From Candidatus Peribacteria bacterium (GTDB taxonomy: Bacteria; Patescibacteriota; Gracilibacteria; Peribacterales; Peribacteraceae): a stretch of DNA of 64,000 nt. The number at the start of each line of letters is the position of its first letter. Positions within the stretch are counted from its first letter, which is position 1. Where the stretch lies: the NCBI GenBank assembly GCA_041691135.1, contig JBEPVF010000003.1, positions 1-64,000 on the forward strand, given 5' to 3'. The translations under genes were made by a program, and so were the position numbers. Shown piece by piece: positions 38,097 through 51,935 of the stretch. The notes below the pieces were generated by a model. The model made no database searches and was not told the DNA's origin. It was given only the letters and a program-made list of their open reading frames with translations.

Positions 38097-39389
38097 ATGA
38101 CCCCACTTCACCCACTTGCCGTCACTCTCAACGAGACCTTTCAGAAACAATCGCCACAAATTTTTTCGCTCTTATCCAAGCGTGGCGTGTCCGCATACTT
38201 TCCCAAGCTCGGTATTCTGAGCCAGGCGGCTGATGCCGATGGCAAGACGATCAATGCGACGATCGGTATTGCACTCGACGAGGACAAAACGCCGCTCCAT
38301 ACGTCCACGATTGCAAAGGCGGTGAACCTGCCGGCCAAGGACGTGTTTCCGTACACGCCGAGCTACGGAAAAAAGCCTCTGCGCGATAAGTGGCAGGAGG
38401 AGATCCGCAAAAAAAATCCGTCACTCAAAGCGGACATCAGTTTGCCGGTGGTGAATGCCGGACTTACGCACTCGCTGAGCGTTGCCGGTTACCTATTTCT
38501 CGATCCGGGCGAAGAGATCATTCAGCCCGACATGTACTGGGACAACTACGAACTCATTTTTGAAGAAGCGTACGGTGCCATACTGACGATGTTTCAGACG
38601 TTCGAAGGACAGCGATTCAATGTGGCAGGATTAAGAAAAACCCTTGAACAGAAGTCAGGAAAACAGGTTGTGTTCCTCAATTTTCCGAACAATCCCACCG
38701 GTTATACGCCACTCACATCGGAGATGCAGGATATCGCGCAGGCGTTGAAAGAAAGTGCCGAGCGCGGCAATAAAATCGTCGTTCTGATCGACGATGCGTA
38801 CTTTGGTTTGATTTACGACGAGGGTGTCTACACCGAGTCGCTGTTCTCGCTTGTGGCCGATCTGCACGAGAACATTCTGGCGGTGAAAGTGGACGGTGCG
38901 ACGAAAGAAGAATTTGCCTGGGGTATGCGCATTGGTTTTCTCACATACGCCGGAAAGGGGATGACCAAAGACACGCTGAAAGTGCTCGAAGAGAAAACGG
39001 CTGGTGTCGTGCGTGGCACGGTGAGCAACTGTTCGCATATGGCGCAGAGTCTGATCCTGCAGGCACTCCAGACGCCTGGCTATGAGGAGGAGAAGCATCA
39101 GAAGTTCGAACTGCTGAAAACGCGCTTCCAGAACGCAAAAAAAGAGGTGGCGAATCCGCAGTATCAGGACCAATTTACGATGCTACCCTGCAATTCGGGT
39201 TACTTCTTGTGCCTCAAATTACGCGATGGTCTGGATGCCGAGCTGGTGCGTCAGAAGCTGCTCCATGATTACTCCACCGGCATCATCGCGCTGGGCAGCC
39301 TGATTCGGGTTGCATTTTCGTCTGTCCCGAACAAAGATTTACCCACGCTGTTTTCGAATATTTACGCCGCGTGCCAGACGTTCTCATAA
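38097..39389 (+). CDS. Class I/II PLP-dependent aminotransferase
   Basis: INATIG, NFPNNPTG, DDAYFG, GATKEEFAWGMRIG. Confidence 0.9.
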   Translation: MTPLHPLAVTLNETFQKQSPQIFSLLSKRGVSAYFPKLGILSQAADADGKTINATIGIALDEDKTPLHTSTIAKAVNLPAKDVFPYTPSYGKKPLRDKWQEEIRKKNPSLKADISLPVVNAGLTHSLSVAGYLFLDPGEEIIQPDMYWDNYELIFEEAYGAILTMFQTFEGQRFNVAGLRKTLEQKSGKQVVFLNFPNNPTGYTPLTSEMQDIAQALKESAERGNKIVVLIDDAYFGLIYDEGVYTESLFSLVADLHENILAVKVDGATKEEFAWGMRIGFLTYAGKGMTKDTLKVLEEKTAGVVRGTVSNCSHMAQSLILQALQTPGYEEEKHQKFELLKTRFQNAKKEVANPQYQDQFTMLPCNSGYFLCLKLRDGLDAELVRQKLLHDYSTGIIALGSLIRVAFSSVPNKDLPTLFSNIYAACQTFS

Positions 39390-39414
39390 TTTCTTCCCTC
39401 TCCTGATTTCTCCC

Positions 39415-41055
39415 ATGGATACTCTCGCTCAGTCTATCGACCAATTTTTGTCTTCTCATAAGAACGTCGCCACCAATTTGACGCGCTCCCAACTGATTCA
39501 GACATCCATCGATCGCCGTGAATGCATCGTCACCGAAAGTGGTGCAGTAGCCATCTGGAACCCGAAAAACGCGACTGGCCGCATTCCCAAAGATACGTAC
39601 ACCGTGCGTCATCCGGACAGCAAAATGAACATCGCGTGGGGCATGCCGAATAACATCGCGATGGAGCCGGCAATGTTCGAGAGCATGTTGCAAGATGCAT
39701 TGTCTACGCTGGGTCAAAAGGATCAATTGTTCGTTCTTGATCGCAGTGTGGGCGCCGATCCGAAATACACCCTGCCGGTGCGCACGATTTCACCGCGCGC
39801 TATCACGGAACTCTTTGCCGACAATATGTTCCGCGCACTGCCGGCCGATCTGAGCCAGAGTATTTTCAAAGATGATCGGTTCACCATCGTCGTGGTACCG
39901 ACCGACAAAGTGCAGACCGCCAAGTACAAGGGAAAACTGCGCGAAGAGAACGGCAAAATCGTCGACCACCTGATCGTCATGGATCTGGAGCGCCGAATTG
40001 GCATCGTGTACGGGACGCTGTACTGTGGCGCGGTGAAGAAGCTCGTGTTTACGGCGATGAATGCGTTATTGCCCACCAATGGCGTTCTATCGCTCCATTG
40101 CTCTGCATCGCAGGATACGGAGGGGAACGCTCACTTGTTTCTGGGCCTCTCGGGTACGGGAAAAACGACGCTTTCCGTCGATCCCAAGCGCTCTTTGATC
40201 GGCGACGACGAACATCTGTGGTCCGATGATGGTGTGGCGAATTTGGAGAACGGCTCGTATGCCAAGCTCATCAGGTTACGCAAAGATAAGGAACCAATGA
40301 TCTTCGAGGCGGTTTTCGGCAAGCGGCCGGTGCTGGAACATGGCTGCATTATCGAGAACACGATGGTCTATCCCGATGGATCGGTGGATGTCGACGATGA
40401 ACGCTTGGCCGAGAATTCACGTGCTGCCTTCCCGCTGTCGTTCGTTGGCAACGTGGTGACGAGTGCGCGCGGCGGTCATCCCAAAACAGTAGTGTTCCTG
40501 ACGGCTGATGCGAATGGCGTCCTGCCGCCGGTGGCGTCGCTCACGCACGAGCAGGCGATGTTATGGTTCCTGATGGGCTACACCAGCAAATTGGCCGGTA
40601 CCGAAGCCGGTGTCACGTCACCGACTACGACGTTCTCTCGCTTCTTCGGCGGACCATTCATGCCGCTTGCGTCGGAGGAGTACCTCAAACTGCTCAATGC
40701 CAAACTTAAAGACCATGGCACGAACGTCTATCTGATCAACACCGGATGGACGGGCGGTCCGTACGGCGTCGGCAAGCGCATGGATATCACGCTCACGCGC
40801 GCGGTGGTGGATGCGGCGCTGACGGGACAACTCGCGAACGTGGAATGCCGCGACGATCACCGCTTCCATCTGCGCGTACCAGTCACGTGTCCTGGCGTGG
40901 ATGCGACGGTGCTCGATCCCAAAGCAACATGGCCAGATAAGGACGCCTACGAAGCCGCTGCCAACAAGCTCTCCAGCGAGTTCGCCGCTCACTTCGACAA
41001 GATGTACAAGGGGCAGGTGCCGCCGGAAGTGGAGGCGATGTGTCCGGGGAAATAA
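39415..41055 (+). CDS. pckA: Phosphoenolpyruvate carboxykinase (ATP)
   Basis: TGRIPKD, HCSA, GLSGTGKTTLS, IGDDEH.W, YAK, ENSR, NTGW.GG..G.GKR. Confidence 0.95.
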   Translation: MDTLAQSIDQFLSSHKNVATNLTRSQLIQTSIDRRECIVTESGAVAIWNPKNATGRIPKDTYTVRHPDSKMNIAWGMPNNIAMEPAMFESMLQDALSTLGQKDQLFVLDRSVGADPKYTLPVRTISPRAITELFADNMFRALPADLSQSIFKDDRFTIVVVPTDKVQTAKYKGKLREENGKIVDHLIVMDLERRIGIVYGTLYCGAVKKLVFTAMNALLPTNGVLSLHCSASQDTEGNAHLFLGLSGTGKTTLSVDPKRSLIGDDEHLWSDDGVANLENGSYAKLIRLRKDKEPMIFEAVFGKRPVLEHGCIIENTMVYPDGSVDVDDERLAENSRAAFPLSFVGNVVTSARGGHPKTVVFLTADANGVLPPVASLTHEQAMLWFLMGYTSKLAGTEAGVTSPTTTFSRFFGGPFMPLASEEYLKLLNAKLKDHGTNVYLINTGWTGGPYGVGKRMDITLTRAVVDAALTGQLANVECRDDHRFHLRVPVTCPGVDATVLDPKATWPDKDAYEAAANKLSSEFAAHFDKMYKGQVPPEVEAMCPGK

Positions 41056-42125: not shown

Positions 42126-43052
42126 CTACGCTTTCCCAAGCGCCGGCACAGTTTCCCTGAACAGCGACGCAACGACGTCCAAGTCTTCATTCACGATCAA
42201 GTGATCGAAGAGATCGCGGCGTTCTTTGAAGAATGCCAGATCCAGTTCGGCGTTCTTGAGACGATCTTGAATGTTCTCTTCCGTCTCACGGCCACGGCCG
42301 CGAAGGCGGTGGAGCAGGGAACTGAGCATAGCGCGCTTGCTCTTGCCCGGCGGCAGCAGGCCGAAGCTGAGAATGGAGCGGCGGCCAAAGTGTTCGCCCA
42401 GGCCTTGAAGCAGGTGCATTTCTGTGATGACGATCGGCAGCAGTCCGGCGTTCCAGATAGCTTTGATATCGCTGGCGCGGTAGCCGTACCAACGGTCTTC
42501 GGATCGGGAGGGGATGTTGGTGGCGGCAATAATCTCACCGGCACGCTGTAGGCGGTCGAATTCTTTTTTGGTCATGTACACGTACTCGCCATCGTCGCCT
42601 TTCTTTTTCGTCCGCGTCGTCAGAATGGGGACATTGCGCGACGAGGTGCTGAACATCGAGACGAGCATGCGGGCGATCGTGGTCTTGCCGACGCCGGACG
42701 GTCCGGTCAGCGCGAGGATGTAGCCGGGGAAAGCGATGGTTTCTTCGCTTACCGGAGCGGTTTTCGTGGCAGGGATTTCGTACGCCACTTCGTAGATGCG
42801 CAGATGATCTTTGGCGACGTAACTCAGGCGCATGCGCGGAATAACCATCATGCCGATTGCTGGTTTGGAACCGGTCAGCGGAGCCATCACTTTCGATCCG
42901 TCAGCCAGCTTGATAAGTGCGATGCTGCGATGGCCGGCACCGAAATGTTCCGGCGGATGTGCGAGCGTCGTAAACGACAGGATCGTTCCTTCTTGCATTC
43001 TACGGCGTTCCTCGGCTTGTCGGCGGGCGATACTGGGTGATGATTCGGGCAT
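42126..43052 (-). CDS. DUF35 OB-fold (no Zn ribbon) fused to a guanylate-kinase-fold P-loop kinase
   Basis: aa ~20-93 EGTILSFT..AHPP..F...IALIKL.DG.KVMA...IGM; aa ~110-305 GPSGVGKT, TTR, WYG, RL.GRG.E....I..RL..A, FDHLIVNEDL. Confidence 0.82.
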   Translation of the reverse strand: MPESSPSIARRQAEERRRMQEGTILSFTTLAHPPEHFGAGHRSIALIKLADGSKVMAPLTGSKPAIGMMVIPRMRLSYVAKDHLRIYEVAYEIPATKTAPVSEETIAFPGYILALTGPSGVGKTTIARMLVSMFSTSSRNVPILTTRTKKKGDDGEYVYMTKKEFDRLQRAGEIIAATNIPSRSEDRWYGYRASDIKAIWNAGLLPIVITEMHLLQGLGEHFGRRSILSFGLLPPGKSKRAMLSSLLHRLRGRGRETEENIQDRLKNAELDLAFFKERRDLFDHLIVNEDLDVVASLFRETVPALGKA

Positions 43053-43066
43053 GGATCGGTGGGAGT

Positions 43067-44194
43067 TTACTGGAGATGTTCAAGAATGTGGAGGCCGCAG
43101 GTGGCTCCGGCACCGCCGAAATTATGGCTCAGTCCATAACGTGTGCCGGCTGCCTTTAGTTGTTTGGCGATGTCGATGAACTGCTTGATGCCCGTCGCGG
43201 CGACAGGGTGGCCGCAGGCTTTAAGACCTCCGCTTTTGTTTACCTGGAGGCCCATCATCGTCGGACGCTCATACAACTCGCGGTAGATGCTGATGCCGTC
43301 GCCTTCGTTGGCAAATCCCAAATCTTCCATGTTGATGACGGCGGCGATGGAGAAGCAGTCATGCGTTTCGACATGGCTGATTTCGTCGCGATCGATGGCG
43401 GCTTCGGCCAGGGCCTTCTCCATTGCTTTTTTTGAAGCGCTGAACGAGGTGAGGCTCGGGCGATCGGCCAGACTGAGTGTGTCGGTGGTGAGTTGTGACG
43501 CCGCTACGCGGAAGTTGCTCTGGTATTTGGTCGAGAGGATGCAGGCGGCCGCACCGTCGCTGATGGGAGAGCAGTCGAGGAGTCGCAGTGGGTCGGCGAT
43601 CGGCGAGCTTTTGGAGACGGCTTCAGGTTTCACTTCCATGCGAAACTGCGCGAAGGGGTTTTCCAATGCCTGACGATGATGCACAGCTGAAACCAAACTC
43701 AATTGGTCTCGCGTCAGACCATAGTCGTGCATGTAGCGTTGGGCGACGAGTCCAAAGATTCCCGGGAACGTGAGTCCGGCCGGCCGGTCCTGCTCGCTAT
43801 CGGCAGCGCCCATCAGGGCCGAGGCAATCTGATCGTTCGTCGCGTCGGTCATTTTTTCGGCACCGATGACGAGAATTGTCTGCGCTCGGTTCGATTCGAG
43901 TAAGGCGCAGGCAGTGTGAATAGCCACTGATCCGCTGGCACAGGCCGCTTCCACGCGAATGGCAGGAGGTTTGTGCGGCAGGAACGACGCGACCATGGCG
44001 CCCATATGCGCCTGATCCGATGCTACTTCGCCGATCATATTGGCGACGATCACCATATCGATGTCGAGTGCAGTGGCTGGAGAATGCTCGATGGCGCCAT
44101 CGACGACTTCGCGCGCCAGATCGCGCAGGCTTTTATCCCAATGCTCGCCGAAGCGGGTTTGAGATGAACCGATGAGAAAGAGGGGCTTTTCCAT
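43067..44194 (-). CDS. Acetyl-CoA acetyltransferase (archaeal/SCP-x-type thiolase)
   Basis: VEAACASG, GAEKM, DCSPISDGAAA, ETHDCF, GHPVAATG. Confidence 0.92.
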   Translation of the reverse strand: MEKPLFLIGSSQTRFGEHWDKSLRDLAREVVDGAIEHSPATALDIDMVIVANMIGEVASDQAHMGAMVASFLPHKPPAIRVEAACASGSVAIHTACALLESNRAQTILVIGAEKMTDATNDQIASALMGAADSEQDRPAGLTFPGIFGLVAQRYMHDYGLTRDQLSLVSAVHHRQALENPFAQFRMEVKPEAVSKSSPIADPLRLLDCSPISDGAAACILSTKYQSNFRVAASQLTTDTLSLADRPSLTSFSASKKAMEKALAEAAIDRDEISHVETHDCFSIAAVINMEDLGFANEGDGISIYRELYERPTMMGLQVNKSGGLKACGHPVAATGIKQFIDIAKQLKAAGTRYGLSHNFGGAGATCGLHILEHLQ

Positions 44195-44206
44195 TATGAG
44201 AGACGG

Positions 44207-44275
44207 AAAGCACGAAATTCGAAATTCGAAATTCGAATTTTTTTCGTGCTTCGTGCTTCGGATTTCGAATTTTTC
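44207..44275. repeat. Inverted heptamer tract (TCGAAAT/AGCACGA family)
   Basis: AAGCACGAAATTCGAAATTCGAAATTCGAA ... TTCGTGCTTCGTGCTTCGGATTTCGAATTT. Confidence 0.75.
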
Positions 44276-45314
44276 ATGAATGAGCAGAAGAAAGAGCCTT
44301 GGTATGATTCAAATACTCAGCGTAGCTCAAGTAGGCAATGTCGCGATCATCGGGAGGAAGCAGCACTCCATTGCGCTGCATCGTCATCAGGAAGGCATCG
44401 GATCCGGCGCCGGATCCGTAACTCACCAATAGAATGGTTTCGGCTTTCTTGGCATGTTGCAGCACTTCCGTGAGTCCGAGCGGGGAGCAGGCGCTGTAGG
44501 TGTTGCCGATGCGCGGCACGATGAATCCGTGATGGCACTGCTCGTGCGTGAAGCCGAACTTCTTGAGGATGCGGGAGGGGAATTTGGCGTTCGGCATATG
44601 GATGACGACGTGGTCGATCTCCTCTACTTTCTTGCCCGTTACTTCCAGAATGCCGCGCAACGCTTCTTCGATATGGCGGAAGTAAGCCGGTTCGCCGGTA
44701 AAGCGCCCAGCATGGTTTGGATATTTTTCGCCGTTCGCACGCCAGAAATCAGGAGTATCGGTGGTAAAGCTGAGCGTGTGATCGATGCGACAGAGCGCAT
44801 TCTTGGCACCACTTGAGCCAATCACGAAGGCAGCGGCGCCAGCGGCAGCCGTGTATTCCAGTGCATCGCCCGGTCTGCCTTGTGCCGTATCTGTTCCAAT
44901 CGCCAGGCCATACTGGATCTGTCCGCTGCGCACGAACGTGTCCACGATCTGCATGGCGGCCGTGCCGGCTTTGCAGGCAAATTCCAGATCCGCAGCGTGC
45001 GAAAAAGGATGGAGGTTCAGCGCGGCAACGAGCATGCCGCTCGTTGGTTTGACGGCGTACGGATGACTCTCGGAGCCGACGAAACACGCCGAGACCTCGC
45101 TCGATTCAATGCCGGCAATCTCGATTGCCTGACGGGCGGCTTCGAAGGCCATGGTAAAACTGTCTTCATCCTTGCCGGGAACCGTCTTTTCCTCAATACC
45201 CAATGTCTTTGCGGTCTCCTCGCCGTCTTGCTGCCAATGCTGGGCGATGGCGGCTGTCTTCAGTCGGAAGGCAGGCAGGTAGCGGCCGAAACCGATGATG
45301 CTGGAAGGCGTCAT
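44274..45314 (-). CDS. Hydroxymethylglutaryl-CoA synthase (archaeal type)
   Basis: VGSESHPYAVKP, DLEFACKAGT, DTPDFWR, RFTGEPAYF, HMPN.KFP, IGNTYS, SYGSGAG. Confidence 0.94.
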   Translation of the reverse strand: MTPSSIIGFGRYLPAFRLKTAAIAQHWQQDGEETAKTLGIEEKTVPGKDEDSFTMAFEAARQAIEIAGIESSEVSACFVGSESHPYAVKPTSGMLVAALNLHPFSHAADLEFACKAGTAAMQIVDTFVRSGQIQYGLAIGTDTAQGRPGDALEYTAAAGAAAFVIGSSGAKNALCRIDHTLSFTTDTPDFWRANGEKYPNHAGRFTGEPAYFRHIEEALRGILEVTGKKVEEIDHVVIHMPNAKFPSRILKKFGFTHEQCHHGFIVPRIGNTYSACSPLGLTEVLQHAKKAETILLVSYGSGAGSDAFLMTMQRNGVLLPPDDRDIAYLSYAEYLNHTKALSSAHS

Positions 45315-45627
45315 GAGACGAGAGGATAGCAAAAAACGGGCCAGAAGTCAGCGAAAGGCGGCTTCTTTCTCTTACAGTGGCTATTCTTGTGGCAATGCGC
45401 TATCTGCCTGTGGAAGCGGTATAGGAAGCAGCCGTATTCGCATTGCTGCCACAGGTTCATCACGTGGTACTTGTAACTCAACCAAACTTGTCGTTTTGGC
45501 ATCAGACGTCGGCTGCGCAAAGGCAGTTCCGATAGTGGCTCCTATTTGGTTGCGAGTATGAAAGGGTTTTCTACTTTTCACATCATGCGTGGTTCGTTGG
45601 CTCACGATGAAGGAAAAATCTGCCTCA

Positions 45628-46314
45628 TCAGGTCTTGGTTGATAGATTAATGGTCTTTGAATGCGTTTGCGTATCGACTGAGCCTTTTCCTCCTTCCATT
45701 TTCAATACTTCCGGTCCTACCTCATGTTCTTGTGCCATAAGTAATCTGGGCGTGCCTTTTTTATGCGGGTCCCATCCATTGAACGTCTCTTGTATGTCCC
45801 CGGAAGGGAGTGTCTCTCGCAAAAGTGGTATATCGCCGACACGTGTCACAAAAACGATCTGCTCAGTTTTTTCTCCCGACGCCATGACGATGTTCCCACG
45901 TCCATCGGAGCACAGTTGATTGAAGTCATTGGTGCGATGCAGGTTACGGGGATCGGTAAAGTTAAAAACGACGAAACCAAATTGCCGGCCCGGTTCAAGG
46001 TAAACGCAATAGTGTGGTGTGGCTTCGTCAGCTCCCTCAAGCGTGAACGGTTCGACAGAGTGCTGTTGAAGAGCAGCGTTTTCATCGTCTGGATTCATCG
46101 AGAGGAACTTTATTCCCACAACGCCGCCGTCAAATTTCTGAACCAAACTTCCATTAAGCATGAGGGGCATGGTCTGATCAATGATCTTTTCCTCCGGGAG
46201 GCCTTTGAGTATCTGGTTCCTCGCTTCAAGTTGTCGAATTATGTTTGGGTTGTGTTCAATAAGGTGCATCGTCGGATGCTCGCTTTGGTCTGCCAGTATG
46301 AGTGATCTGTTCAT
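45628..46314 (-). CDS. Hypothetical protein inserted in the mevalonate cluster
   Basis: ~228-aa ORF on the cluster strand, AT-richer than flanks; no motif recognised. Confidence 0.6.
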   Translation of the reverse strand: MNRSLILADQSEHPTMHLIEHNPNIIRQLEARNQILKGLPEEKIIDQTMPLMLNGSLVQKFDGGVVGIKFLSMNPDDENAALQQHSVEPFTLEGADEATPHYCVYLEPGRQFGFVVFNFTDPRNLHRTNDFNQLCSDGRGNIVMASGEKTEQIVFVTRVGDIPLLRETLPSGDIQETFNGWDPHKKGTPRLLMAQEHEVGPEVLKMEGGKGSVDTQTHSKTINLSTKT

Positions 46315-46375
46315 AAGGTATAGAACGAAAAAGGATTCATAGTGCCAAGGCAATGGGGGAAGTCAAAATATTTCT

Positions 46376-47533
46376 TCACCGGCCATGTTCCTTATGCGCC
46401 TTTGCCAATGTATGGCTCGCTTGGGCCGCTAGGAGTGAAATTTCTCCGGCCAGTACGGCTGCGCCAATACTTTCGGCCAATTGTTGGGTGGGCGACAGAG
46501 ATGTTGGGCTTTTCAGGAGCAAGTGCAGACATTGCTGCTGCGTGGGGAGTGCCGTGCCGCCGCCGCGAATACCGACGAGAAGAGCGGGAAGTCGCACATA
46601 TACTTTTAAGCCTTCATCCGTCAGCTCGACGCCGGTCGTGGCCATCGATCCCTCTACGGTGTGGGCGACGTCCTGCCCGGTTGCCAGATAAAGTGCGGCG
46701 ATGATATTGGCGACATGCAGATTGCGTCCAAGCATGCCGGCGACATCGGATCCGGCGATGAGTTTTGCATTGGCGACGGCGATCATTGTTTCGGCCGAAG
46801 ATTTTAACGACTCCTGCATCACTGCATGGGCGAGTGTTGCCTCAGCCGTCACTTCGTAGCCGCGCCCGCGCTGAATGGTGCGGAGGCTGGGCTTTTTGTC
46901 GCTGTCGACGTTGCCGGCGACAGTGATGAACTCGGCGATCTTCATGTCATTGCCGATCCATTCGCCGATGGCCTGTGCGGCGATGGTCACCATATTCATG
47001 CCCATGGCTTCGCCGGTATCGCAGAAAATAGTCAGGAAGACGAACTCCTCCTCCTCGTCCAGATCGAAAGTCAGAATCTTCAGATGGCTGCTCGTCGCTT
47101 CGCCTATTTTTGTCCATTCATCCTTGTGTCGAGTAATCAGGCGAATCGCCGAACGCGGATCCACGGACCGGAAGGCGATGGAACGGTTGGTGCCATGATG
47201 AATCGAGGAGGTGCGGACACCGCCGCTCTGCGTGAGCGCTTTGCAACCGCGGTTCACACTGGCTACCAGTGCGCCTTCGGTGGTGGCGAGCGGCAGATGG
47301 AGTGAAGACTCTTCGCCGGAACTGAACTGCACAGCCAGTGGTCCCGCGTAGCCGACAGGAACCGATACGATGCCGAACATCTGCTCGCAGTTCTTCTCGT
47401 CGGCCTGGCCGATATGCTGTTCATCCGCTTCCAGGAGAGACAGGTCGATGCCCAGTTCCTGTTCGATCAGCCGCCGACGTGCGGTGACGCGTTGCTCAGA
47501 AGACAGATCGGGTGGTAGGGAGCGGAGATCCAT
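46376..47533 (-). CDS. hmgA: HMG-CoA reductase, class I
   Basis: NCEQMFG, PLATTEGALVAS.NRG, GEAMGMNM, DKK, ATGQD.A, LAGE.S, AH...GR. Confidence 0.93.
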   Translation of the reverse strand: MDLRSLPPDLSSEQRVTARRRLIEQELGIDLSLLEADEQHIGQADEKNCEQMFGIVSVPVGYAGPLAVQFSSGEESSLHLPLATTEGALVASVNRGCKALTQSGGVRTSSIHHGTNRSIAFRSVDPRSAIRLITRHKDEWTKIGEATSSHLKILTFDLDEEEEFVFLTIFCDTGEAMGMNMVTIAAQAIGEWIGNDMKIAEFITVAGNVDSDKKPSLRTIQRGRGYEVTAEATLAHAVMQESLKSSAETMIAVANAKLIAGSDVAGMLGRNLHVANIIAALYLATGQDVAHTVEGSMATTGVELTDEGLKVYVRLPALLVGIRGGGTALPTQQQCLHLLLKSPTSLSPTQQLAESIGAAVLAGEISLLAAQASHTLAKAHKEHGR

Positions 47534-47555
47534 TGTGATGAAAGATTCAAGAGGT

Positions 47556-48554
47556 TTAGAGCAGCGAGGCACCGGTGCCGGCTTGGGCTTCGAAGATGGT
47601 GCAGTTGGTTTGTTGTTTGGCATAGCCACGGATGGCTTCTACTGCTTCCTGGGTGCAGATCAGATGGACGGTCGCACCGGCATCCATGGTATAGAGGACA
47701 GGCAGATGCTGCGTGCGTCGCAGTTCGTTGATCTCGTCGACGATGCGGTTGGTGTCGGGCGTCAGGTAATTGAGTGATGGCGTACTGGTGCGCATCACGT
47801 CGTGCATGTTCAGACAGTCTTCCTCGGCGATGATTTGCAGCTTCTCAAAATCCTGCTGCTGGATGGCGTCGATGCATTCTTCCTGGCGGTGCGGAATCGA
47901 GGCGACGCGCCCGGCGAACAGGGGACTGCTCGGGGCGAACGTATGTCCTTCGGTGGAACCGTACTGCTTCTCGTTCATGCTGGGCGCGATGATGATGTCG
48001 TACAGGATCCAATAATCTTCCGGTGCAATCTGCACGGCGTACGCGCCGTCGATACTATCGTTTTCCACATGCATGGCACTGTACCCGCCGAACACGCCGC
48101 GACAGGCTGACCCACTGCCCAGACGAGCCAGGATACTGATCTGTTCCGATGTCAGTTCGATGTGTTCCTTGATCAGTCCGGCATACGCCGTTGCGACACA
48201 GCTAAATACAGCAGCCGACGAAGCGAGGCCGATAGCCGGTGGAATGTGCGACCGGATGGTGAGTGATACGGCCTGTGGCAGCACATCCGGTTGATCGAGC
48301 GTCGCCAGATAATGGCGGCAGAGTTCGAGGTGCTTCTGGAAGCGTTGCGTGTCTTTTTCTCGCAGTACTTTCGGTTTGCCATCAGCGTCGTACGAATCGA
48401 TATGCCATTGATCATGGGGTTCCACGCTGATGTCGACGGTGGGATTCGACAGCGTCATCGACAGCGAATCGGCGGCCGGAATGCGGAGCTCGGCATTGCG
48501 GTTTCCCCAGTATTTGATGAGGGCGATGTTGGGTGTGGAGCGGGCGGTAACCAT
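47556..48554 (-). CDS. mvaD: (Di)phosphomevalonate decarboxylase, GHMP family
   Basis: NIALIKYWG, SLS.TL, GLASSAA, ARLGSGSACR, YTMDAG. Confidence 0.93.
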   Translation of the reverse strand: MVTARSTPNIALIKYWGNRNAELRIPAADSLSMTLSNPTVDISVEPHDQWHIDSYDADGKPKVLREKDTQRFQKHLELCRHYLATLDQPDVLPQAVSLTIRSHIPPAIGLASSAAVFSCVATAYAGLIKEHIELTSEQISILARLGSGSACRGVFGGYSAMHVENDSIDGAYAVQIAPEDYWILYDIIIAPSMNEKQYGSTEGHTFAPSSPLFAGRVASIPHRQEECIDAIQQQDFEKLQIIAEEDCLNMHDVMRTSTPSLNYLTPDTNRIVDEINELRRTQHLPVLYTMDAGATVHLICTQEAVEAIRGYAKQQTNCTIFEAQAGTGASLL

Positions 48555-48587
48555 CGGAATTGAAAATTGAAGAATGGAATTTTTACT

Positions 48588-49457
48588 TCATCGATGCTCG
48601 ATGAGTGAGTAATCGTAGCGTTTTGCGATCGTCTGAACCACATCTGATTCCCGGTGCAGTGTCATCACCATGCCTCCGCCACCGGTTCTGGCTCCGGCAC
48701 CGATGATTTTGGCGACGCCGCCTTGGACTTCGATATCGGCGATGAGGCGTTGCACTGGCTCGGGGACAACTCCCAATTCCACTTGGGCCCGGTGATGATC
48801 CGGAATAACGGTCTGTGGAGACTCACCCTTCAGGAGTCGCTCAGTGCATTGACCTATGGCTTGAAGAGCGGGTTCAAGCATTGCCGCATGCTCCTTTACC
48901 CAGTCGACCAATGCCGGTGTCGTTTCGCCGGGTTTGCCCGTGTCGATGAGTATCGCGTTTGCCAAAAAATCGGTGCTGATGGGTGCCGATTGTACTGTCT
49001 CTCCGCGGCGGAAAAGGATGGGCTGATTGCGCCAGATGACCTCGAAATCAATGCCGCTGTGTCCGGGATTGAACTGATTTTCCATTTGCCGGCAAGCAGC
49101 TTCACAGTCATCGCCCAGGAGTGCTCTGCCGATTGCGATCAGAAGGGCGGTCGAGGACCCCATGCCACGCCCAAGTGGAAGAGCGTTGTCGATTGTGAGT
49201 ACTCCACTGAATTTTTCCCCCGCGTGTTCTTCGCAGGCAATAATCAGTCCGCTCACATATTTCTGCCATTCTTTACTCCATGGAATACCGGTCTGCCTGA
49301 TTTCCAGCCCCTTGGTTTCTGGTTTCTGGTTTCTGGTCTCGTCGTAACAAACCTGCATTCCCATCACAGATGGCGCCGCAATTCCCCGATGTCCGAATAC
49401 CACGGCATATTCACCGCTGAGGATGATCTTGCCGGAGGCGACACCGGTGCGGATCAT
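48588..49457 (-). CDS. mvk: Mevalonate kinase
   Basis: GKIILSGEYAVVFG, PLGRGMGSS, SGID, KIIGAG..GGGG. Confidence 0.88.
   Translation of the reverse strand: MIRTGVASGKIILSGEYAVVFGHRGIAAPSVMGMQVCYDETRNQKPETKGLEIRQTGIPWSKEWQKYVSGLIIACEEHAGEKFSGVLTIDNALPLGRGMGSSTALLIAIGRALLGDDCEAACRQMENQFNPGHSGIDFEVIWRNQPILFRRGETVQSAPISTDFLANAILIDTGKPGETTPALVDWVKEHAAMLEPALQAIGQCTERLLKGESPQTVIPDHHRAQVELGVVPEPVQRLIADIEVQGGVAKIIGAGARTGGGGMVMTLHRESDVVQTIAKRYDYSLIEHR
49313..49340. repeat. (TGGTTTC)3-TGGTCTC heptamer tract inside mvk
   Basis: Direct tandem heptamers, translated as ETRNQKPETK. Confidence 0.75.
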
Positions 49458-50131
49458 GAGCCGAATCGGCGTGTCCGTTTGGAAAAATCGTCAACTGCAT
49501 GGGCCAGATCCTCAGTCGTGAAATCGGGGAAGAATTTGTCGATGAACAGCCACTCGGCGTAGGCGCTCTGCCACAGAAAAAAGTTGCTGGTGCGCTGCTC
49601 GCCCGATGTGCGAATGATGAGGTCGATGTCGGTGAGTTCGGGATGATCTAGTTGTATGTGTATCGATTCTTCTGTTGCGGTTGAGGGGTCGGGAAGCTTG
49701 TGAATGGCACGAATCAGCTCATCTTTGCCGCCGTAGTCGACAGCCAAATGCAGCGTGAGTTCGGTTTGATCCTTCGTTTCCTCGGTAATGTCGCGGATCA
49801 AGTTGGCGAGTGACGAGGGGATCCGATCGAGACGGCCCGAATGCACGAAGCGCGTTTTGTTCTGCAGAAATACCTGGCGCTCGCGTCGCAGATAGTCTTC
49901 CAGCAGCGTCATCAGATGGGCCACTTCGTCAGGATCCCGTTTCCAGTTCTCAGTCGAAAAGCACCACACGGTGAGGGTCTGCACCCGCGGATCGTCTTGA
50001 CACCACTCGGTAAGCGTGCGGAAGTTTTCTACTGCTCGTTCGTGGCCCTTCCACGGAAACAGCGTTCGTTGCTTGGCCCAGCGGCGATTGCCGTCGGGGA
50101 TGATGGCGATATGGAGCGGAGAATCGGGCAT
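49454..50131 (-). CDS. uppS: Undecaprenyl diphosphate synthase (cis-prenyltransferase)
   Basis: HIAIIPDGNRRWA, FSTENWKR, YGG, DLIIRTSGEQRTSNF.LWQ.AYAE. Confidence 0.96.
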   Translation of the reverse strand: MPDSPLHIAIIPDGNRRWAKQRTLFPWKGHERAVENFRTLTEWCQDDPRVQTLTVWCFSTENWKRDPDEVAHLMTLLEDYLRRERQVFLQNKTRFVHSGRLDRIPSSLANLIRDITEETKDQTELTLHLAVDYGGKDELIRAIHKLPDPSTATEESIHIQLDHPELTDIDLIIRTSGEQRTSNFFLWQSAYAEWLFIDKFFPDFTTEDLAHAVDDFSKRTRRFGS

Positions 50132-50133
50132 GG

Positions 50134-50685
50134 TCAGTTCCAGGTAACGGCAGGGGATTCGATGATCATGCGCAGACCGAGGTGGAACCACGGCGCATAG
50201 TCGAGCGCATGTTCTTTCATATCAGTGCCGAGTTCGTCGAGATCGATCCATTTCCACTCGGCGACTTCATGGGGATCGGCATTGATGCGGATGTTCTCGT
50301 CGGCTTCACCGATCAGGAGAGTGACGTATTCGTGTTCGATACCTCGCTGCTGCGGATCTTCGGCGCGGTACACGAAAGACAGATGAGGGCGGAGGGGGAC
50401 GGAGAAACCCAGTTCCTCACCCAGTCGGCGTTCACCGGCTTGCTCCGGTGCTTCATGGTCCTGCGGATGACTGCAGCAGGTGTTGGCCCAAATGAGCGGC
50501 CAGAGCATTTTTTTGGCACTGCGTCGTTGGATCAGTATTTTGGATCGGTCGGCATTGAAGACATAGACCGAAAAAGCCAAATGCAAAGAGCCTTCGCCGG
50601 TGTGTGCCTGCACGATCTCCATCGATCCGGTGGGCATGCCATTCGGATCACTCAGTATCACCGTCCTTTTGGCCTGGGGTTCCAT
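50134..50685 (-). CDS. idi: Isopentenyl-diphosphate delta-isomerase, type 1
   Basis: LHLAFSVYVF, QRRS..K..WP..WANTCCSHP, RRL.EELG, EHE, EV. Confidence 0.94.
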   Translation of the reverse strand: MEPQAKRTVILSDPNGMPTGSMEIVQAHTGEGSLHLAFSVYVFNADRSKILIQRRSAKKMLWPLIWANTCCSHPQDHEAPEQAGERRLGEELGFSVPLRPHLSFVYRAEDPQQRGIEHEYVTLLIGEADENIRINADPHEVAEWKWIDLDELGTDMKEHALDYAPWFHLGLRMIIESPAVTWN

Positions 50686-51215: not shown

Positions 51216-51839
51216 TTAGCGTCGGCTCTTCTTCTTACCCTTGCCGCCCTTCTTCGCTGCCGCTTCCTTAGCCGGCTTGCTGCGCTTCGCTGCTTTCTTG
51301 AGTGGCTTCTTCGTTTTCTTGGCCGCTTTCTTCATGGTCTTCGTTACTTTCTTGGCGGCTTTCTTTACGGGCTTCTTCGCTTTGGTCGGTCGCTTCACTG
51401 TCTTTTTGATAGCCTTTTTCTTGGCGACTGGCTTCGTTGCCTTCTTTGCTTTGGCAGCAGCTTTCTTGACCGGAGCTTTCGTGGGCTTCTTGGCCGGGGT
51501 CATTTTCGGGACCGGTACTTTGATCGTCTTCGGTGCGGCGATGCCGGACTTGGCTGTGTCGTCGAACATGGTGCCACCGGCATTGTTTGCCTGCTTGTCA
51601 CCTTTTTCTCCGTCATCAGGCGACGATGTGCCGACACGCGGCTTCACACTGCCTGCCTGCTTCGGTTGTTTGTCGGTGAAGGGCGACAGATCATTTTTGG
51701 AGGTGGCATTGTCGGAGTCGCTGCGTCCCGTGTCTTTGTAGTCGAAGCTCTGGCCCGGTCCATCCGTAGGCGGGTTGGCATTGGGCGTATTCTTGAAAAT
51801 AGACTGGAAAGGCCGTTGCTGTGGTTGATCGGAGAACAT
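51216..51839 (-). CDS. Histone H1-like Lys/Ala-rich protein
   Basis: C-terminal half of KKAAKK/KKPVKK repeats; polar disordered N-terminus. Confidence 0.7.
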   Translation of the reverse strand: MFSDQPQQRPFQSIFKNTPNANPPTDGPGQSFDYKDTGRSDSDNATSKNDLSPFTDKQPKQAGSVKPRVGTSSPDDGEKGDKQANNAGGTMFDDTAKSGIAAPKTIKVPVPKMTPAKKPTKAPVKKAAAKAKKATKPVAKKKAIKKTVKRPTKAKKPVKKAAKKVTKTMKKAAKKTKKPLKKAAKRSKPAKEAAAKKGGKGKKKSRR

Positions 51840-51935
51840 GGGTGTTGAGAGTAAAAGTAGGTAAAGAACTCTATGCCTCGCGATGAACTGAAACAAGCCT
51901 TTGAGTGAATATGTTCAAAAAAAGAGCACAAGGCT

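Follow-up and report, generated by a model that had tools for sequence, protein, structure and literature searches.

A mevalonate cluster with a missing kinase

The first 64,000 nucleotides of contig JBEPVF010000003.1 of the Candidatus Peribacteria bacterium assembly GCA_041691135.1 (the whole stretch analyzed here, hereafter called the window) carry, at positions 42126 to 50685, a cluster of mevalonate pathway genes with no recognizable phosphomevalonate kinase (PMK) or isopentenyl phosphate kinase (IPK). The question raised by this locus is which protein takes mevalonate 5-phosphate on to the diphosphate level. From sequence comparisons, we propose that the guanylate kinase (Gmk)-fold domain of a fusion protein encoded in the same cluster is probably an IPK and performs the last step of the window's mevalonate route. 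A preliminary description of this DNA had taken the domain for either an IPK or a PMK completing a variant route. That interpretation is supported in silico in that neither a PMK nor an IPK was found, a separate gmk is present, the family is confined to Peribacteria-type mevalonate clusters, and the fold is that of Gmk. Of the two options, the evidence appears to favor IPK over PMK because the type of decarboxylase tracks the presence of PMK and because stand-alone copies of the kinase persist in genomes that have no mevalonate pathway.

The window lies on contig 3 of an assembly of 1.74 Mb in 35 contigs that is 92.3% complete with 3.8% contamination (G000 in our genome set). The list of open reading frames (ORFs), together with Pfam and NCBIfam scans, placed nine ORFs in the cluster, all on the minus strand, and bore out the gene order and coordinates that the preliminary description had given:

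50134-50685, minus strand: type 1 isopentenyl diphosphate (IPP) isomerase, idi; NF002995 159.6 bits (cut-off 127).
49454-50191, minus strand: cis-prenyltransferase UppS; TIGR00055 208.6 bits (cut-off 109.55).
48588-49457, minus strand: divergent GHMP kinase, assigned as mevalonate kinase (MVK); TIGR00549 80.3 bits (below the cut-off of 163).
47556-48554, minus strand: MvaD-type decarboxylase, proposed phosphomevalonate decarboxylase (PMD), of type B as defined below (KYWGN, GSTEGH); TIGR01240 178.1 bits (cut-off 171.35).
46376-47629, minus strand: class I 3-hydroxy-3-methylglutaryl-CoA (HMG-CoA) reductase, hmgA; PF00368 313 bits, TIGR00533 286 bits (below the cut-off of 441.8).
45628-46353, minus strand: orphan ORF of 241 amino acids between hmgA and the HMG-CoA synthase gene.
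44274-45332, minus strand: HMG-CoA synthase, archaeal type; NF003274 430.3 bits (cut-off 244), TIGR00748 400 bits (cut-off 353).
43067-44194, minus strand: archaeal-type acetoacetyl-CoA thiolase; Pfam Thiolase_N 93.3 bits (cut-off 26.4) and Thiolase_C_1 84.1 bits, under the NCBIfam cut-offs (NF004720 376.6 versus 420 bits; NF053570 339.6 versus 600 bits).
42126-43052, minus strand: DUF35(OB)-guanylate kinase-like fusion of 308 amino acids; PF01796 and PF00625.

Because the hmgA ORF overlaps mvaD, the true start of hmgA probably lies downstream of its first start codon.

In the proposed route, the thiolase and HMG-CoA synthase would convert acetyl-CoA to HMG-CoA, HMG-CoA reductase would produce mevalonate, and the divergent GHMP kinase would phosphorylate it to mevalonate 5-phosphate. 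The MvaD homologue, acting as a PMD, would then yield isopentenyl phosphate, to which the Gmk-fold domain would transfer the gamma-phosphate of ATP to give IPP for Idi and UppS. We infer the substrates of the decarboxylase and the kinase and also a scaffold role for the OB half: judging from gene order and published DUF35 complexes, it probably keeps the thiolase and HMG-CoA synthase associated, in the manner of DUF35 proteins.

The pathway gap is genome wide

Across the whole genome to which the window belongs, GHMP_N matched the two cluster genes only, and there were no matches to GHMP-type PMK (TIGR01220) or to animal PMK (PF04275). The IPK model NF040647 gave nothing above its cut-off of 120 bits in this genome; its three weak matches (38, 26, and 25 bits) were proB and a pair of UMP kinases, all of which pass the cut-offs of their own equivalog models. 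The preliminary description had reported a cluster without PMK or IPK. With neither found genome wide, their absence, and thus the pathway gap, is real. For the first Peribacteria genome, the published report gives the steps up to mevalonate 5-phosphate and from mevalonate 5-diphosphate onward and calls the pathway "near-complete" (PMC4736985), and an IPK in the fusion would close this gap between mevalonate 5-phosphate and the diphosphate.

We also examined 151 genomes of the order, which belong to a single GTDB family and 68 genera. No IPK scored above the NF040647 cut-off in any of the 151, and IspH was absent from all of them, the window's genome included (other genes of the methylerythritol phosphate [MEP] pathway were not searched for). 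Because IspH is missing from every genome, the MEP route was ruled out to that extent and the mevalonate route is the only recognizable source of IPP. An archaeal dehydratase/UbiD route was also rejected, as no UbiD was found in the window's genome or in G001, G008, G101, and G146 (AcnX was not searched for).

Several candidates for a hidden kinase were considered and dismissed. At E <1e-12, sub-threshold matches to NF040647 (48 to 68 bits) occurred in 19 of the 151 genomes. One of them lies inside the mevalonate cluster of G118 and was ruled out as an IPK, being a proB within inserted proline synthesis genes; the remaining 18 are frames of about 280 to 640 amino acids with partial matches and, judged from these lengths and extents, resemble proB or aspartokinase. 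The G118 insertion (L038 7840-10971), read by eye from ORF translations, holds three genes between hmgA and mvaD, for a glutamate 5-kinase that carries a PUA-like tail, a reductase resembling ProC, and a dehydrogenase resembling ProA. The possibility that one of two pyrH-like genes is an unrecognized IPK was ruled out, since both copies pass the UMP kinase model TIGR02075 (333.9 and 312.0 bits; cut-off 243.9). These two UMP kinase genes lie on contig 1 (L005 1489-2199, adjoining frr) and contig 20 (L004 1495-2199) of the window's genome, and the pair reflects either a true paralogue or the 3.8% contamination. The orphan ORF at 45628-46353 was likewise rejected as the missing enzyme. It had zero Pfam or NCBIfam matches and no phmmer match at E 1e-5 among 20 related loci. 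By these comparisons it is a nonconserved gene outside the mevalonate system proper. In relatives, its intergenic slot between hmgA and the HMG-CoA synthase gene is filled by other insertions.

The GHMP kinase belongs on the MVK side

In 13 of the 151 relatives there are three GHMP matches instead of two, the third being an additional GHMP kinase, and nine three-GHMP clusters were fetched for comparison. In these nine, the extra gene adjoins an MvaD distant from the window's (118 to 138 bits, versus 338 to 406 bits for two-GHMP clusters), and both the extra gene and its neighboring decarboxylase are encoded on the opposite strand from the other cluster genes. The extra kinase passes the MVK model (190 to 202 bits) and resembles archaeal MVKs (E 3e-37), which raised the possibility that the window lacks MVK and not PMK.

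In two clusters from other members of the Candidate Phyla Radiation (CPR), a PMK (TIGR01220 215 to 218 bits, cut-off 165.7) stands beside an MVK-like kinase. A 31-sequence IQ-TREE phylogeny grouped the extra GHMP kinase with the CPR PMKs (support 100/99). The window's GHMP kinase and its orthologues formed a clade of their own (100/100), weakly placed (62/37) beside other CPR MVK-like kinases, with midpoint rooting, a long stem (2.46) to the small-kinase clade, and an exact affinity that is unsure. The PDB matches of the window's kinase were MVKs only, the best being 2OI2 at E 2.1e-10. The idea that this small kinase is the PMK and that MVK is missing was ruled out, since the third kinase is sister to bona fide PMKs in the tree. 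The window thus appears to have an MVK and to lack the PMK lineage, given the weak placement of the MVK clade. The gene called mvk in the preliminary description does fall on the MVK side, but it is a divergent member whose identity needed the tree to settle.

The fusion protein has a Gmk fold with an altered guanine pocket

Three features were delineated within the fusion:

42768-43052, minus strand: N-terminal helix and five-stranded OB fold, amino acids 1 to 95; PF01796 at amino acids 20 to 70, 29.4 bits (cut-off 27.1).
42129-42740, minus strand: Gmk-fold P-loop kinase domain, proposed IPK, amino acids 105 to 308; PF00625 at amino acids 114 to 295, 45.7 bits (cut-off 25.2).
42681-42704, minus strand: P-loop GPSGVGKT, amino acids 117 to 124; G117 to G122 invariant in 59 sequences and K123 in 120 of the 120 homologues listed.

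An AlphaFold2 model of the fusion, built with the 59-sequence alignment, had a mean pLDDT of 91.5. It comprises a helix and OB fold at amino acids 6 to 92 (strands at 22 to 30, 42 to 49, 54 to 60, 69 to 79, and 85 to 92), a dip in confidence at amino acids 100 to 110, and a Gmk-like alpha/beta domain. The OB half contains no Cys in amino acids 1 to 110, and the Pfam scan found no zinc ribbon family there. The best Foldseek matches were guanylate kinases, with GMP-bound yeast Gmk 1GKY in first place (26% identity; E 1.8e-16; rmsd 2.4 Å; TM 0.88 on the target). The alignment and modeling against Gmk that the preliminary description had suggested therefore give a clear result as to fold: the model indicates that the kinase domain adopts that of Gmk, with guanine-side residues altered.

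In a profile-to-PDB search, the best single-domain Gmk match scored 84.7 bits, the overall top row being the multidomain protein FAP42 (151.5 bits). The alignment contained a four-residue insertion (IPS.) ahead of YGY and Ala/Ser at the position of the guanine-binding Glu. The kinase domain keeps the motifs GPSGVGKT, TTR, GEY, WYGYR, and RLRGRGR. Alignment with the genome's own gmk paired SATTR with P-ILTTR, FLEW with IIAA, YGT with YGY, and EVDIQ with ITEMH, and the comparison with mouse Gmk was similar. The Ser, Glu, Thr/Ser, and Asp of the genome's gmk are thus Pro/Ile, Ala, Tyr, and Glu/Met in the fusion. Ser, Glu, Ser/Thr, and Asp are the residues that we take to contact guanine in yeast Gmk. 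This alignment agrees with the residue reading of the preliminary description, in which the phosphate-side motifs were kept and the guanine-side ones changed. We suggest that the substrate phosphate would be bound by the counterparts of the residues gripping the phosphate of GMP in Gmk (Arg147, a basic residue three places further along, Tyr157, Tyr189/191, and the arginines of the lid) and that the guanine pocket has been rebuilt.

The fusion matched no GHMP PMK family (TIGR01220, TIGR01219, or NF040957) and no animal PMK family in Pfam or NCBIfam. It is a P-loop protein and does not have the amino acid kinase fold of the NF040647 IPK. Against the PhnN model TIGR02322 there was a weak match over the lid region (24.1 bits, cut-off 156).

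The fusion is confined to one lineage and is not the housekeeping Gmk

Homologues of the fusion numbered 569. The 120 listed are all 285 to 334 amino acids long and all carry PF00625, with PF01796 also on 114 of them when the table was read by eye. Those that are named come from Candidatus Peregrinibacteria or Peribacteraceae, and some are labeled "guanylate kinase" or "OB-fold domain-containing protein." The kinase domain alone, searched exhaustively, matched only 19 clusters (50% identity) at E <1e-30, both fused (about 300 amino acids) and stand-alone (about 195 to 225 amino acids), and ordinary Gmks fell below about 100 bits. Among 301 genomes sampled from the phylum, only four, all of the window's GTDB family, scored 250 bits or higher, and the next best was 100.4 bits; this sample includes an unpublished genome (G302) that contributed only a weak gmk-like match (79.6 bits).

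Among the 151 genomes of the order, a strong fusion match (E 1e-60 or better) was found in 110 and HMG-CoA reductase in 108, with both in 106. In the two genomes with the reductase and without the kinase, the contig ends 1.0 to 1.3 kb past HMG-CoA synthase. Four genomes have the kinase without the reductase: three of them (G008, G101, and G146) have the kinase domain alone, and the fourth is probably an assembly gap. A scan of 130 relatives' contigs gave 9 family loci among the 80 kept, and a metagenome scan gave 8 family loci among 64, all of them fused type B clusters. Outside this lineage, a stand-alone kinase 52% identical to the window's domain (P0123, P0269, and P0270) is named from several "Candidatus Kentron" (Gammaproteobacteria) metagenome-assembled genomes, which could reflect horizontal transfer or a binning artifact.

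Could the domain simply be a second guanylate kinase, or another nucleoside monophosphate (NMP) kinase, fused by chance to DUF35? PF00625 is above its cut-off, some homologues are named "guanylate kinase," and the nearest fold is that of GMP-bound Gmk. However, the domain scores 74.8 bits against the Gmk equivalog TIGR03263, far under the cut-off of 160.45. The preliminary description had proposed a search for a second canonical gmk, and one is present on contig 2 of the window's genome (PF00625 88.2 bits; TIGR03263 134.8 bits, below the same cut-off), with the motifs SATTR, FLEW, YGT, and EVDIQ that include the residues lost in the fusion. By its motifs this gene is an ordinary gmk and the fusion is not the housekeeping copy. 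The narrow distribution and the strict synteny with mevalonate or idi/uppS genes also argue against a plain NMP kinase, and we regard this explanation as highly improbable.

The decarboxylase type follows the presence of PMK

The MvaD of the window matched PF22700 (125.2 bits), PF18376 (60.1 bits), and 18 PDB decarboxylases at E <1e-5, the best of which was 6N0X (178.9 bits). According to PMC9254496, 6N0X is the Anaerolinea thermophila PMD (AthPMD) with mevalonate 5-phosphate bound, and a PMD was switched to a diphosphomevalonate decarboxylase (DMD) by mutagenesis by Thomas et al. In the mevalonate diphosphate decarboxylase (MDD) of Staphylococcus epidermidis, Lys21 lies near the terminal phosphate of mevalonate diphosphate, and MDDs have Lys at this position, mevalonate phosphate decarboxylases having Leu, Met, or Tyr (PMC3857490). 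The printed alignments show YWGN and GSTQGH in 6N0X, YWGK and GM in the deposited variant 6N0Z, and KYWGN and GSTEGH in the window's MvaD. At the Lys21 position, the window's enzyme therefore has Asn, a nonbasic residue and the same one as in AthPMD.

This position separates clusters by their PMK content. It is Asn (KYWGN) in 19 of 19 clusters without PMK, Arg (KY[WM]GR) in 10 of 10 PMK-bearing Peribacteria clusters, and Lys (KYWGK) in 4 of 4 PMK-bearing clusters from other CPR bacteria. We refer to clusters with PMK and an Arg/Lys MvaD as type A and to those with no PMK and an Asn MvaD as type B. On these grounds, the window's MvaD is proposed to be a PMD.

Catalytic residues of the kinase erode where PMK is present

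Of the 120 closest homologues listed, 119 retain all of six kinase-domain residues (K123, R147, Y157, Y191, R253, and R255), and these are invariant or nearly so in the 59-sequence alignment, which includes stand-alone forms. To compare clusters, we aligned 23 family members with the gmk of the window's genome. The six residues were intact in 14 of 14 sequences from PMK-less clusters, G001, and stand-alone genes, and at least one was lost in 7 of 9 PMK-bearing clusters of the order sample. A tenth PMK-bearing cluster (L045) has intact motifs by regular expression and by eye, so that erosion overall amounts to 7 of 10. The losses differ by lineage: TTR has become TTA (twice), KTC, TTC, or ATH, the P-loop Lys is Arg in G058 (GVGRT), and lid arginines are lost in six. 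G076 and G027 keep the six residues beside PMK, but neighboring positions have changed (T124K and Y189F in G076; T210/E211 in G027).

The preliminary description had called for a test of whether the fusion co-occurs with the absence of PMK and IPK. The fusion does track Peribacteria-type mevalonate clusters, but it also stands beside PMK in a minority of relatives, in which its catalytic residues have decayed and the cluster carries the other type of decarboxylase.

When HMG-CoA synthase, thiolase, and HMG-CoA reductase were concatenated for a FastTree phylogeny (30 taxa, 1095 columns), types A and B interleaved, with three A/B sister pairs at a local support of 1.0. Because of this interleaving, the correlation between PMK and kinase integrity has independent replicates; the lower-pathway module has been exchanged several times, and the erosion has arisen in separate lineages. 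The PMK-MvaD pair is inverted relative to the remainder of the cluster in most PMK-bearing clusters, which suggests that it is a cassette exchanged among close relatives. The loci compared were L014-L021, L030, and L045 (with PMK) and L022-L029, L038-L044, and L048 (without PMK). Single GTDB genus codes (g4, g32, g46, and g52) contain both clusters with PMK and a DMD-type MvaD and clusters with a PMD-type MvaD alone.

Stand-alone kinases occur without the pathway

In G101 and G146 the kinase domain is encoded alone (212 and 203 amino acids, respectively), is 58 to 60% identical to the window's domain, has its motifs intact, and lies near uppS; the reductase is missing from both genomes, and neither has more than one weak GHMP match. 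A histidine phosphatase family gene lies between the stand-alone kinase and uppS in G146 (L013 5150-5779; alpha-ribazole phosphatase model 81.9 bits, cut-off 162.9). The clearest case is a genome recorded as a Candidatus Paceibacterota bacterium (G445, locus L046), which encodes a 219-amino-acid stand-alone kinase with all motifs (TIGR03263 87.5 bits, below 160.45). Its gene overlaps a type 1 idi (NF002995 202.6 bits) by 4 nucleotides and is oriented divergently to uppS, with a trans-prenyl diphosphate synthase gene 1.1 kb away. No HMG-CoA reductase and no GHMP match were found in this genome, for which completeness is not given. Divergent stand-alone kinases at 34 to 59% identity keep the P-loop Lys, Arg147, both Tyr residues, and the lid arginines. 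Where the pathway is absent, a PMK would find nothing to act on, and these copies therefore favor an IPK, which would feed the neighboring enzymes. As described by Hoshino and Gaucher (PMC6107057), the known CPR IPK is syntenic with mevalonate genes, sometimes beside PMK and DMD, and is linked to idi in pathway-less genomes.

These results bear on the possibility that the Gmk-like domain is itself a PMK, in a route that would run from MVK through a Gmk-fold PMK to MvaD as a classical diphosphomevalonate decarboxylase. Such a route would explain the pathway gap equally well and would fit the fact that the window's MvaD passes TIGR01240, and a one-for-one replacement of PMK also predicts that the kinase decays beside a GHMP PMK. 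Animal PMK, as a precedent, has an NMP kinase-like fold. However, the type of MvaD and the residue at the beta-phosphate site change at every switch (19 of 19 Asn; 14 of 14 Arg or Lys), and a plain exchange of PMKs would need no change of decarboxylase. Intact stand-alone kinases, moreover, occur in genomes without MVK, MvaD, or HMG-CoA reductase, one of them translationally coupled to idi. Given both patterns, we consider a Gmk-fold PMK unlikely.

Evidence weighing against the IPK assignment

Several observations weigh against an IPK acting downstream of a PMD. On the side of the decarboxylase, the role of the YWGN and GSTQGH positions as a specificity switch is a deduction from sequence differences between PDB entries. 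The window's MvaD scores 129.4 bits against the PMD model NF040704, below its cut-off of 475, and it passes the diphosphomevalonate decarboxylase model TIGR01240 (178.1 versus 171.35). The PMK-linked MvaD proteins likewise pass TIGR01240 and are under the NF040704 cut-off at 165 to 170 bits; because both types score alike, the NCBIfam models do not discriminate PMD from DMD here. The PMK-linked type is closer overall to the Anaerolinea PMD (261.6 bits) than is the window type (178.9 bits), and it also keeps the His of GSTQGH, which leaves only one specificity position of the two to tell the types apart.

On the side of the kinase, the six residues are kept in 3 of the 10 PMK-bearing clusters (G027 and G076 by alignment; L045 by regular expression and by eye), and the fusion is retained despite eroded catalytic residues in 7 of the 10. 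G001 has an intact kinase and no MvaD-type or UbiD-type decarboxylase: in this genome, which is 100% complete, there is no MVD-like_N match besides MVK and no UbiD match anywhere. The mevalonate cluster of G001 (L028, G001:C1:25000-44999) otherwise looks complete and has about 400 bp between hmgA and mvk. Among the stand-alone copies, that of G008 adjoins secY and adk and has no isoprenoid neighbor, and idi was not seen in G146 or G008. The main facts for which the IPK reading does not account are the G001 cluster, the retention of the fusion where its site is eroded, and the source of isopentenyl phosphate in pathway-less cells. Finally, the loci examined are a sample, drawn from 24 of the order's 110 kinase-bearing genomes among the 151, with 13 more taken from other scans.

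Some of these points fit a different explanation, in which the missing enzyme lies elsewhere and the domain would serve the DUF35 scaffold as a regulatory or structural appendage or would phosphorylate some other prenyl or polyprenyl phosphate. The second phosphorylation would then fall to a promiscuous MVK or to an unrecognized protein. Retention of the fusion in the eroded clusters means that the domain has some value beyond catalysis, and the G001 kinase without a decarboxylase fits as well. MAGUK guanylate kinase domains are protein-binding modules, and they are among the weak PDB matches of the domain. The location of stand-alone copies by uppS (G101, G146, and L046) would also suit a longer substrate. 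An appendage, however, does not account for the catalytic residues kept in nearly all close homologues listed and in divergent stand-alone forms, or for erosion occurring only where PMK and a DMD-type MvaD render the activity dispensable. The clusters also hold no other conserved unassigned gene, the orphan not being conserved. We judge this explanation to be rather doubtful and retain the IPK assignment as the probable one.

Relation to known systems

The reaction that we propose, from ATP and isopentenyl phosphate to IPP, and its place in the pathway are those of the amino acid kinase-fold IPK (NF040647) of Methanocaldococcus, Thermoplasma, Roseiflexus, and plants. The CPR IPK matches in genomic behavior, its linkage to idi without the pathway being comparable to L046 (PMC6107057). 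These IPKs differ from the window's kinase in having an unrelated fold, the latter being a P-loop protein of the Gmk fold that is usually fused to a DUF35 OB domain. The fusion kinase resembles functional Gmk (1GKY) in its fold and P-loop, in the arginine of TTR, in both phosphate-side tyrosines, and in the arginines of the lid; it differs in not reaching the TIGR03263 cut-off, in its changed guanine-side residues, and in the insertion ahead of YGY. PhnN ribose 1,5-bisphosphokinase and animal PMK are also P-loop kinases of the NMP kinase/Gmk type that act on nonnucleotide phosphate monoesters, but the fusion is not a significant member of either family (TIGR02322 24.1 versus 156; PF04275 0 matches).

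The mevalonate route of haloarchaea and Chloroflexi (MVK, PMD, and IPK; PMC3857490) has the same three chemistries that we propose, no PMK, and a nonbasic residue at the Lys21 position. It differs from the window's route in that the third enzyme here is nonhomologous, the host is a CPR bacterium, and close relatives carry PMK and a DMD-type MvaD. The logic of the pathway is therefore already known from haloarchaea and Chloroflexi. The enzyme family for the last step, the DUF35 fusion, and the repeated swaps of the lower pathway within one bacterial order would be new.

DUF35 proteins typically have an N-terminal rubredoxin-like zinc ribbon, and an archaeal complex of thiolase, HMG-CoA synthase, and DUF35 was reportedly described by Voegeli et al. 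in 2018. The fusion shares the OB fold (PF01796) of these scaffolds, and its gene immediately follows those for the thiolase and HMG-CoA synthase; unlike them, it is without a zinc ribbon or Cys and has a C-terminal kinase domain. A tripartite HMGS-ACAT-DUF35 complex is described in PMC12960953. No description of a Gmk-fold IPK, or of a DUF35-kinase fusion in a mevalonate context, was found in the literature searched, which did not extend to subscription papers and supplements.

Taken together, the data allow a broader reading that we put forward tentatively, at somewhat less than even confidence. An unrecognized family of Gmk-fold IPKs would have arisen in Peribacteria-type CPR bacteria. In the fused form, DUF35 would anchor the last step at the complex of thiolase and HMG-CoA synthase that carries out the first two, and the stand-alone gene with idi, uppS, and a trans-prenyl synthase would be a minimal salvage module, making IPP from scavenged, host-derived isopentenyl phosphate with neither a mevalonate nor an MEP pathway. 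The lower pathway (PMK and DMD versus PMD and the kinase) would be a cassette that has been swapped repeatedly.

If the IPK assignment is true, the kinase would represent a third unrelated fold making an isoprenoid diphosphate, beside GHMP PMK and amino acid kinase IPK, and a clear case of nonhomologous displacement. Classical and "alternative" lower mevalonate routes would coexist and be exchanged within one order, which bears on which route is ancestral, a question raised in PMC6107057. The annotations "guanylate kinase," "OB-fold domain-containing protein," and "diphosphomevalonate decarboxylase" would need correction in hundreds of CPR genomes. The assignment also suggests a route of IPP supply for pathway-less episymbionts, and a small soluble P-loop isopentenyl phosphate kinase could serve engineered isoprenol utilization pathways.

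Genes flanking the cluster

Two ORFs next to the cluster were characterized by eye. Downstream of it, 51216-51896 on the minus strand encodes a Lys/Ala/Pro-rich basic protein that is histone H1-like. Upstream of it, 39310-41055 on the plus strand is an ORF of 581 amino acids that resembles ATP-dependent phosphoenolpyruvate carboxykinase.

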